Below are positions 8,339 to 10,738 of a stretch of DNA of 64,000 nucleotides, piece after piece (positions within the stretch are counted from its first letter, which is position 1; every line of letters begins with the position of its first letter). A program made the position numbers and the translations under genes. The notes under the pieces are model-generated. The model was given only the letters and a program-made list of their open reading frames with translations, was not told the origin of the DNA and searched no databases. The DNA comes from Klebsiella phage LPKP23. Location: sequence record PV112478.1; one strand, given 5' to 3'.

Positions 8339-9028
8339 TTACTTATTGGTTTTGGTGATATACCACTTCCAAAGGCCGTAGAAAGCATTCATCAAGAATA
8401 CTGCCCACTGTGCCACCTGCGCCCATGAACCCGGTTGATTAAGCGCCGGGATCACCCACAGATAAATCGTGACGCAGTTGATAATGATCCAGAGAATCCA
8501 TTGCTCTGGCTGCTGCTTGATCATCATCCACATGGCGATGAGCGATGCGACTAAGCAGAATGCGTCTAAGGCAGGAAACGGATCCTGCGTCGTTTTAAGG
8601 TATTCGGTCAGGCCATACCAGAAGATAACCCCAACAACCAGATAAGTTATCACGTCACGTAAAGTGATCGTTTTAACCGCTACGTCCGCTTTCGCTGGCG
8701 TTTTACCCAGATCTTTCGTCCAGTAATAGATACCGATGAATTGCATGGGTAAATAAATAGCGTTTAGCGCCGCATTCGCGTAGAGTCCGGTATTGTACGA
8801 AACAATACCGTAGGTAATTACACCAATCGTCCCCCAGTAATAATTAGAGACGCGACCCTTCGCCACCAGAATCACGCAGACAACGTTGGTTAGCGCTGCC
8901 GTGAATTCTAACGGACTGGCTTGCCAGCTCCCCAATCCGACGACGATTAACGCTACGATCAGCCAAAAGTATTCGACTTTCTTCCAGTGCGCAAAGTCAG
9001 TGAAAGTTTTCATTACCAGTGAGTTCAT
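8339..9028 (-). CDS. pnuC: nicotinamide riboside transporter PnuC
   Basis: A multi-TM protein of about 229 aa. The motifs IYYWTKD and PFPALDAFCLVASLIAMWMMIKQQPEQWILWIIINCVTIYLW match E. coli PnuC (IYGWYAW and PFWDSCMMVLSIVAMILMTRKYVENWLLWVIINVISVV). Confidence 0.85.
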   Translation of the reverse strand: MNSLVMKTFTDFAHWKKVEYFWLIVALIVVGLGSWQASPLEFTAALTNVVCVILVAKGRVSNYYWGTIGVITYGIVSYNTGLYANAALNAIYLPMQFIGIYYWTKDLGKTPAKADVAVKTITLRDVITYLVVGVIFWYGLTEYLKTTQDPFPALDAFCLVASLIAMWMMIKQQPEQWILWIIINCVTIYLWVIPALNQPGSWAQVAQWAVFLMNAFYGLWKWYITKTNK

Positions 9029-9031
9029 TTA

Positions 9032-9502
9032 TTATTCCTCAATTTTAATACGGCGAAGGGTATATGCGCCGATGTCAGAATTCAGGGTGCGGAACTTATC
9101 AATGAAGATACTGATTCCGTCTACGTCCTCATAAACGAAAACAGACATATCAGCTTGGCTGTCGATGCGCAGCGATGTATAGTATCTACTGAAATATCCA
9201 TCAACGTCATCAGGGAAACGATTCTTGTTCATCAACTCATGATAAAACATAATGGCCCCGCTATTTCTGGCGATATCTCGAATTTCGCGGAGTGTTTTCA
9301 TCACAGCTTCTTTGTTATCGCAGGTAGGGCTCAGGGTAAAATGAATATCTTCTGGCGCTTCCTCATCTTTACAGAATAGTCCGGCTATCTTTTGTGCAAC
9401 ATTATTTTGGTTAGTTCCATAGATCGTTTTGATGATCACTAACCCACCGCTTTGGAAAAGTCCAGTTTTACGGAAAATAGTGTTTAATTCAGAAATTTTC
9501 AT
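9032..9502 (-). CDS. hypothetical protein (156 aa) between pnuC and nadR
   Basis: ORF packed tightly between pnuC and nadR. Confidence 0.5.
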   Translation of the reverse strand: MKISELNTIFRKTGLFQSGGLVIIKTIYGTNQNNVAQKIAGLFCKDEEAPEDIHFTLSPTCDNKEAVMKTLREIRDIARNSGAIMFYHELMNKNRFPDDVDGYFSRYYTSLRIDSQADMSVFVYEDVDGISIFIDKFRTLNSDIGAYTLRRIKIEE

Positions 9503-9523
9503 TTATAACCTCTAAGATCTTAA

Positions 9524-10738
9524 TTACTGATTAGGGATGGAATATTTACCTTCAACACTTTCCACTGCCATCCATGCAGGGTCAGATTCAAAGGACTCAC
9601 CAGCCGGTGCAGGTTGAAGTTTGCCGGGTACACCTTCCCCTAGTGGATCCCATCCTTTAAACCCTTCGTTAAACGCCAACAATTGATCTACAGCTGCTCG
9701 AGCTTGATCTAACCGTCTTTTGTAGGAGTCTCCTGTAATGTAGACTGTACGGTAACGAGGAATTTGGTTTTTAAATTCCCGAAGCATTTGCTGGAAAAGA
9801 CTGTCTGTTTTCTCGCGGTCAGGATTCAACCGCAGACCGTCATCGACCCATGGTACTTCCGGCGAAAGAACCAACACGAGATCGTAATGTTCTTCAGCCG
9901 CGATAGCAGAAACAATAGGGTTAGGTTTACCCTCGTACAGTCGATGGTAATATTCCGTAATGAAGGCGTTCGTATCGATGAAACAGAGTCGATTAGAAGT
10001 ACGTAATGCTTCCTCCTCCAGCTCTTTGTGACGATACGCAATCAACGGGTAGTCAGAACTACGGAGAGTCGCTTCCGAACCCGCTAAGACCGTTTCACAG
10101 TACGTACGACCGTACTCTTCAACCCAGCTGGTATTGTAGAGTTTGGCGAGGTTCTTGACGAGGGAACTTTTCCCGGAACTCTCAACACCTAATACGACCA
10201 CCCGCAAACAATAATCTTTACGGACAATGCTCGGGAGATATTCCCAATGGTCGTAAAGGTTTTCACGGATCATGGTCGCAGAGATGGGAACGCGGGTACG
10301 GTTGCTGTCAACGATAACGTGTTCTACAAAACCGAGGTGCGTTTTGTATTTTTCATCGTAATCCAGCTCGCTACTGAAAATAGCAATGCTCTGCGCCTGA
10401 CTGTGGTTAGCTGCCAGTCTACCCGCCTCGTTGAAAATCTTAGCGCCGAGCAGAGCAGCGTATTCTTTCCAACCGTTAGGGTATTCCGGTACAGAAGCCT
10501 CGTCAATGAAATCGATCGTGACGTGTTCTGTATCCGCGTAAGTTTGTTGCAGCCAGCGCAGACGATTTTTGAAGTTGAGTACCTTTTGGTCTCGTGGCGA
10601 TTGTTTATCCAGCCAACGTTGGTCGTGGGAAAGAATAACGAGGACATGCTTAGACTGCACAGCAGCCTCTGTGATTAAGTTGATGTGCCCCAACGTAAGG
10701 GGCGCGAATTTACCGATTACTACGCCTAAGTCAAACAT
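9524..10738 (-). CDS. nadR: NadR-type bifunctional NMN adenylyltransferase / ribosylnicotinamide kinase (no N-terminal HTH)
   Basis: The N-terminus GVVIGKFAPLTLGHINLI carries the (H/T)xGH nucleotidyltransferase motif, as in NadR (VFGKFYPLHTGHIYLI). The Walker A motif VVVLGVESSGKSSLVKNLAKLYNTSWVEEYGR matches the NadR RNK domain (ILGGESSGKSVLVNKLA...WEYGR). Confidence 0.9.
   Translation of the reverse strand: MFDLGVVIGKFAPLTLGHINLITEAAVQSKHVLVILSHDQRWLDKQSPRDQKVLNFKNRLRWLQQTYADTEHVTIDFIDEASVPEYPNGWKEYAALLGAKIFNEAGRLAANHSQAQSIAIFSSELDYDEKYKTHLGFVEHVIVDSNRTRVPISATMIRENLYDHWEYLPSIVRKDYCLRVVVLGVESSGKSSLVKNLAKLYNTSWVEEYGRTYCETVLAGSEATLRSSDYPLIAYRHKELEEEALRTSNRLCFIDTNAFITEYYHRLYEGKPNPIVSAIAAEEHYDLVLVLSPEVPWVDDGLRLNPDREKTDSLFQQMLREFKNQIPRYRTVYITGDSYKRRLDQARAAVDQLLAFNEGFKGWDPLGEGVPGKLQPAPAGESFESDPAWMAVESVEGKYSIPNQ

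Follow-up and report, generated by a model that had tools for sequence, protein, structure and literature searches.

Phage NadR genes usually stand in one operon with PnuC, and it was proposed that the two 'would form yet another pathway' for the reconstitution of NAD+ (Osterman et al. 2024, bioRxiv 10.1101/2024.02.11.579819). Clusters of nadR/pnuC were described in a jumbo-phage survey published in Microbiome in 2024, in which 68 of 174 'NAD-jumbo phages' had pnuC and which spoke of 'independent synthesis and utilisation systems of NAD+'. The pair of PnuC and a truncated NadR was named NARP3 by Yan et al. (Sci Adv, 12 Aug 2026; PMC13464706). Its source is the Escherichia phage TrudiRoth, in which Bas30_87 binds and imports nicotinamide riboside (NR), while Bas30_86, of which two structures have been solved (9X6H and 9X6F), converts NR to nicotinamide mononucleotide (NMN) and further to NAD+. 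The restoration of NAD+ by the pair depends on NR, and two genes suffice experimentally to bring back NAD+ and phage plating against Sir2-HerA (a rescue of 10^3- to 10^4-fold) and DSR1, K. pneumoniae included (PMC13464706). Here, a locus of this type is described from a stretch of 64,000 nucleotides of Klebsiella phage LPKP23 (PV112478.1), which is called the window throughout. The locus covers positions 8339 to 10738 and comprises a nadR-like gene, a pnuC gene and an orphan gene between them.

The locus is best explained as a NARP3 orthologue that would salvage NR to NAD+ and in which the middle gene is an unrelated accessory insert, carried by a jumbo phage of Klebsiella (~300 kb) from the Siatvirus/Maaswegvirus-like group; the probability of this reading is put at roughly 0.82. 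The assignment to NARP3 is based on profile and structure matches, on the retention of all mutagenised residues and on the shared nadR-pnuC order, as detailed below.

The three open reading frames (ORFs) are co-directional on the minus strand, and their order from 5' to 3' is nadR (9524..10738, 404 amino acids), the middle ORF (9032..9502, 471 nt, 156 amino acids) and pnuC (8339..9028, 229 amino acids). Only 21 nt separate nadR from the middle ORF and only 3 nt separate the latter from pnuC. Inspection of the same strand revealed a Shine-Dalgarno-like site for each gene, i.e., AAGGAAGGG 8 nt 5' of the nadR ATG (10747..10755), AGAGG in the 21-nt gap past the nadR stop codon (9509..9513), and GAGGA within the final codons of the middle gene (9036..9040). 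Because this last site, which would serve pnuC, lies inside the 3' end of the middle gene, translational coupling of the two genes is likely. Judged from spacing alone, all three genes are probably co-transcribed. As in NARP3, nadR lies upstream of pnuC on the same strand; in contrast to NARP3, the two genes are not directly adjacent but separated by the 471-nt gene. A tblastn analysis of the whole window did not uncover paralogues of NadR, PnuC or the middle protein elsewhere.

The 404-residue protein matched PF13521 and PF01467 in Pfam as well as phrog_3462 (E = 1.7e-126), and it scored 261 bits with the full-length NadR model NF005988, which has a cutoff of 201. With NF005988, which has 411 positions, the alignment sets in only at position 65, and therefore the N-terminal helix-turn-helix (HTH) repressor domain is missing. 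With TIGR01526, an equivalog_domain model of the NadR NMN adenylyltransferase (NMNAT) domain, the score of 273 bits remained under the curated cutoff of 341. Because NF005988 was passed despite this shortfall, the protein is placed within the NadR family, as a divergent representative, and not outside it. The NMNAT motifs GKFAPLTLGH and ISATMIR were unbroken, and so were the Walker A motif GVESSGKS of the kinase and the motifs FIDTN and WVDDGLR. The best match in the PDB was Bas30_86 (9x6f/9x6h, E = 8.8e-144), with an end-to-end alignment, and NadR of Haemophilus influenzae (1LW7) was matched with E = 5e-56. It was thus verified that the locus encodes an HTH-less NadR in which the catalytic motifs are not degenerate, as an earlier note on this DNA had claimed. 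By homology, the protein is a bifunctional NMN adenylyltransferase and ribosylnicotinamide kinase without HTH domain and the orthologue of Bas30_86. Homologues of NadR were present in 772 of 50,697 phage records; among Klebsiella phages, the identity is 99% to NadR of MJ359 and 85-89% to the proteins of KpLz-2_45, FBKp24 and Centimanus.

An alignment with the NadR proteins of these jumbo phages and with Bas30_86 revealed an insert of 9-11 amino acids in the NMNAT domain (residues ~95-110, about 10409-10456, minus strand) and a C-terminal tail of ~45 amino acids (residues 358-404; 9524-9664, minus strand). Both are common to the jumbo-phage clade, and neither is present in the crystallised Bas30_86. 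Within the clade the tail is variable and poorly conserved, with a loose motif PGKFxPAxSGGxF..D.W..VES.

The protein encoded by 8339-9028 matched PF04973 with 148 bits over profile positions 1-174 of 175, and its score of 121.9 bits with the PnuC equivalog TIGR01528 was far above the cutoff of 42.45. It also matched phrog_1880 (E = 3.8e-56) and PnuC of Neisseria mucosa (PDB 4QTN, E = 3.6e-29). The assignment as a PnuC homolog in the earlier note was therefore correct, and on these matches the protein is predicted to be an NR transporter and is regarded as the orthologue of Bas30_87.

For the comparison with NARP3 at the level of single residues, Bas30 was represented by Salmonella phage S114 (Epseptimavirus), whose NadR agrees with the crystallised chain in all 346 residues compared (100% identity) and whose PnuC served as stand-in for Bas30_87. 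Identity amounts to 64% between the window NadR and Bas30_86 and to 49% between the window PnuC and PnuC of S114. All 13 residues of Bas30_86 that had been mutagenised are kept, namely K10, F11, S37, E80, P84, G89, F110, S112, D115, V139, I141, E230 and D275; in the numbering of the window protein the first six are unchanged and the others correspond to F121, S123, D126, V150, I152, E241 and D286. Likewise, the NR-binding residues N45, Q94 and N180 of Bas30_87 are kept in the window PnuC as N48, Q96 and N184.

The following route is proposed by analogy with NARP3. PnuC would move extracellular NR across the inner membrane, and NadR, with its C-terminal kinase domain, would phosphorylate it to NMN and thereby trap it in the cell. 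The N-terminal adenylyltransferase domain would then use NMN and ATP to form NAD+. During infection NAD+ could thus be replenished where the host's production has stopped or where defences of the Sir2/TIR type destroy NAD+. The 156-aa gene would encode a RecA/DnaB-fold protein with a lost P-loop, which is probably co-transcribed and would be dispensable for NAD+ synthesis. The strong homology to the Bas30_86/87 system makes the transport step and the enzymatic steps probable, and the view of the earlier note that NR is imported and converted to NAD+, probably as a counter-measure against NAD+-depleting immunity, is well supported by 64% identity to Bas30_86 and by the retention of the functionally tested residues. 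The anti-defence role in the window phage itself is extrapolated from NARP3, and a general role in NAD+ supply would be a compatible alternative.

This alternative can be formulated more strictly: the module might be a general metabolic booster and not a counter-defence system, and it might feed NAD+ to consumers encoded by the phage, e.g., Tpt1 or an NAD-dependent ligase, during a long and resource-hungry infection and whatever the immunity of the host. The NAD+ synthesis and utilisation systems reported in the 2024 jumbo-phage survey, with its 68 pnuC-carrying phages, would fit such a role, and a homologue of the NAD+-consuming Tpt1 is encoded on the same strand ~8 kb downstream of pnuC. However, about 12 unrelated ORFs lie in between, and the module is not tightly linked to any NAD+ consumer. 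Moreover, it is the same gene pair that rescues phages from Sir2-HerA by several orders of magnitude and counteracts DSR1, and both roles are not mutually exclusive. As a replacement for counter-defence, the booster function is thus a tentative possibility and clearly the less probable one.

Several related phages made it possible to trace the gene content of the locus. The region shows 94% DNA identity to Klebsiella phage vB_kp_MJ359 (300.8 kb) and 81-84% to vB_KpM_Centimanus and vB_KpM_FBKp24 (Maaswegvirus); with KpLz-2_45 (Siatvirus) and related phages, 79% of the region is shared at 95% identity. In all four phages the nadR/pnuC locus is orthologous and syntenic, and the records of all four already carry nadR and pnuC annotations; what varies is the content between the two genes. 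The window and Centimanus have the 156/157-aa gene in this slot. In MJ359 (locus L001) the 156-aa gene is present together with an additional 133-aa orphan (7521-7922), which lies between nadR and the 156-aa gene, has no PHROG match and is missing from the window. KpLz-2_45 has instead a 47-aa ORF, which lacks annotation there (locus L002, 2529-2672), and FBKp24 has a 50-aa ORF (locus L004, 2219-2371). These two small ORFs are homologous to each other and differ from the 156-aa gene; they encode a conserved, basic protein that starts with MT[Q/H]QRRTQRKIKR.... Elsewhere, i.e., in five phages that represent four lineages (T5-like, Stenotrophomonas, Pectobacterium and Vibrio), nadR comes first and abuts or overlaps pnuC. 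Taken together, the nadR-pnuC junction appears to act as a site of cassette swapping. The 156-aa gene had also been considered as an ancestral component that is prone to deletion; this was rejected because the slots of the sister phages KpLz-2_45 and FBKp24 contain no remnant of it and carry the different 47-50-aa ORF instead.

The middle protein had no match in Pfam, NCBIfam, PHROG or the PDB sequences. Among the 50,697 phage records its gene was present in only two, i.e., MJ359 and Centimanus, and a word-indexed search of 5.8 billion proteins yielded five close homologues. When 1.84 billion representatives were searched exhaustively with a HMMER profile, a single distant homologue with 33% identity (P0006) and a fragment of 37 amino acids were obtained in addition. 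Six weak matches of the profile to a 4571-aa repeat-rich surface adhesin (P0007) were judged to be spurious and were attributed to repeats and composition. The distant homologue is encoded on a 264-kb contig, and nadR and pnuC were absent from the 6 kb that were read on each of its flanks. Because the sister phages lack the gene, only 2 of 50,697 records contain it, the distant homologue has neither nadR nor pnuC in its flanks, and MJ359 carries a further orphan, the middle gene was most likely acquired independently, as an accessory gene in a variable junction, and probably stands outside NAD+ salvage. The proposal of the earlier note that NadR, PnuC and the 156-aa protein form one operon can thus be kept with regard to coordinates, strand and tight gaps, whereas the membership of this lineage-restricted orphan in the module is not supported, as sister phages do without it.

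The fold of the middle protein was predicted. A first structure model, based on an alignment of six sequences, was too weak to be used alone, with a predicted local distance difference test (pLDDT) value of 60.6, and it was replaced by a model based on seven sequences including the distant homologue. The latter is of moderate confidence (pLDDT 72, predicted template modelling score 0.73), and four of the five models agreed; the weaker first model had led to the same family of structural matches. The predicted structure has a RecA-like alpha/beta core, and the closest viral structures were small uncharacterised proteins of jumbo phages, including a 170-aa protein of FBKp24. A Walker A motif (GxxxxGK[ST]) was not found, as none of the seven family members contains GK[ST], and the sequence following strand 1 is IYGTNQNN. 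Only VFVYE (residues 121-125) matches hhhh[DE]; six of the seven members have this match but the distant homologue lacks it, so that a family-wide Walker B motif does not exist. The middle protein is therefore predicted to be a minimal RecA/DnaB-type alpha/beta core without Walker A motif. Searches with the family profile against the PDB sequences gave nothing, the comparison with Pfam did not yield a match of the DnaB_C, KaiC or AAA_25 type at E <= 10, and a sequence-profile relationship to NadR was not detected. The earlier note had suggested a Nudix or phosphoribosyltransferase fold; both were ruled out by the absence of matches to these families and by the predicted RecA/DnaB-like fold.

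Two genes downstream of pnuC a further orphan of 170 amino acids is located (7366-7878, minus strand), which is 63% identical to gp140 of FBKp24. Its N-terminus (MTVSEIHALLKTSSLSETGG) weakly resembles the middle protein (BLASTP E = 0.002 over 25 amino acids), and a comparison of the two with hhalign resulted in E = 0.0016 and a probability of 16%. The 170-aa ORF may be a distant paralogue of the middle protein, and if it were truly paralogous, this would point to a family of small RecA-fold proteins in these phages.

Several observations weigh against the view that the locus is a plain NARP3 orthologue with an unrelated insert. The identity to the experimentally validated pair is only 64% for NadR and 49% for PnuC, so that the function is assigned by homology, and the window NadR departs from Bas30_86 by the clade-specific insert and the C-terminal tail. 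Two site-1 residues of NARP3, R167 and K168, which were named but not singly mutated, are replaced by L178 and R179. A scan of the operon for sigma-70 promoters and terminators gave counts equal to the shuffled expectation; an uninformative result was to be expected, because the phage appears to encode its own multisubunit RNA polymerase, as judged by synteny with the annotation of MJ359. Furthermore, all four close homologues of the middle protein with known context (the window, MJ359, Centimanus and locus L006) are encoded in the identical slot between nadR and pnuC. Together with the apparent translational coupling to pnuC, this may indicate a functional link of the middle gene.

Such a link could take several forms. 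The P-loop-less RecA/DnaB-fold protein might be a partner of NARP3, e.g., a regulator or adaptor that links the tailed NadR to PnuC, or a stand-alone factor for host takeover or counter-defence, e.g., a DnaB/RecA-like decoy, which is kept for co-expression with NAD+ restoration, and perhaps it belongs to a small family of this clade that includes the 7366-7878 ORF; altogether, these possibilities are regarded as doubtful. More specifically, the locus could be a genuine unit of three genes, in which the pseudo-ATPase would complete the jumbo-phage form of NARP3, either by coupling NadR to PnuC as an adaptor or regulator, perhaps via the C-terminal tail of NadR, or as a sensor of nucleotides or NAD metabolites. 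The constant slot, the tight packing with the ribosome-binding site of pnuC inside the middle gene, and the tail of the clade NadR, which is missing from Bas30_86, would be in accord with this. Yet the contexts stem from closely related phages and amount to roughly one evolutionary event, sister phages have the same tailed NadR without the middle gene, the distant homologue is encoded away from nadR and pnuC, the middle protein has no sequence relationship to NadR, and NARP3 works with two genes. A three-gene unit is thus considered to be improbable. The Pnu family includes transporters of other vitamins, and the PnuC-like protein could in principle carry thiamine or riboflavin precursors, so that the two proteins would not act in a common pathway, but this is highly improbable in view of the clearly exceeded TIGR01528 cutoff, the conservation of the three NR-binding residues that were defined by mutagenesis in Bas30_87, and the linkage to nadR across many phage lineages.

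Thus, a NARP3 orthologue with an accessory insert remains the preferred reading. It implies that this counter-defence route reaches ~300-kb Klebsiella jumbo phages, with the tested functional residues kept at 49-64% identity, and this could be useful for the design of phage therapy against K. pneumoniae strains with Sir2, TIR or DSR defences. It does not add a new principle; the local peculiarity is the orphan gene with a predicted RecA fold, together with the alternative small ORFs, at the nadR-pnuC junction.

The earlier note had also placed Tpt1 and NADAR in the same block. A Tpt1/KptA homologue is indeed present at 217->2 on the minus strand (tblastn E = 1e-13, 44% identity over KptA residues 13-84), and its orthologue in MJ359 is annotated as 'RNA 2'-phosphotransferase'. 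The gene is cut by the left edge of the window, which contains only the N-terminal ~72 amino acids. In contrast, NADAR (PF08719) was not found: Pfam gave no match in 26 ORFs across window positions 1-17000, PHROG gave none in the ORFs compared, which were mainly from this part, the best hit of a whole-window tblastn with YbiA had E = 2.5, and a motif scan of the whole window was empty. Because Tpt1 is distant and truncated, the wider theme of an NAD/ADP-ribose block is weak.

Some further genes of the window were noted. Directly downstream of pnuC, a 141-aa ORF (7882-8307, minus strand) matches phrog_11227, which bears the label 'protease'; it has 89% identity to a counterpart in an otherwise very divergent 264-kb contig (L008) and is unusually conserved for an accessory region. 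A phosphohydrolase with an HD domain is encoded at 727-1455 on the minus strand (phrog_16069, E = 3e-25), and a 174-aa orphan lies between this gene and the Tpt1 fragment. A gene similar to dUTPase/dCTP deaminase is located at 16207-16830 (minus strand). By synteny with MJ359, some ten large ORFs in a row at 22672-44922 (592-1304 amino acids) would encode tail fibre and tail spike proteins, and two large ORFs at 54145-60279 (minus strand) would encode the beta subunits of the multisubunit RNA polymerase of the phage.

In comparison with bacterial salvage by PnuC and NadR, the folds, the motifs and the logic are the same, i.e., facilitated uptake of NR, trapping by the kinase and adenylylation. 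Unlike the enterobacterial NadR, the window NadR has no HTH repressor domain at its N-terminus, and the phage proteins are too divergent for a recent capture from the host. The middle protein is comparable to degenerate members of the RecA superfamily (the C-terminal domain of DnaB, KaiC, RadB, Elp4-6 and the N-domain of BcsE), but it has just 156 amino acids and is without detectable sequence homology to them. NARP1 (ADPR-PP) and NARP2 (Nampt and NMNAT; Osterman et al. 2024) have the same outcome, as NAD+ is rebuilt against NAD+-depleting defences; they recycle ADP-ribose and nicotinamide, which are breakdown products from within the cell, whereas the route proposed for the window needs imported exogenous NR. 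The earlier note had regarded the PnuC/NadR route as distinct from the described ones, but Osterman et al. had put it forward in 2024, the jumbo-phage survey of the same year had catalogued it, and its publication as NARP3 followed in 2026. The route, its logic and its distribution are therefore already published, and the sister genomes already carry the gene annotations. The closest described system is thus NARP3 itself, which originates from a T5-like phage of ~110 kb and not from a Klebsiella jumbo phage of ~300 kb, has an uninterrupted junction in place of one that is broken by a 156-aa orphan gene, and has a NadR without the insert and the tail, while nadR and pnuC follow each other in the same order and on the same strand in both.

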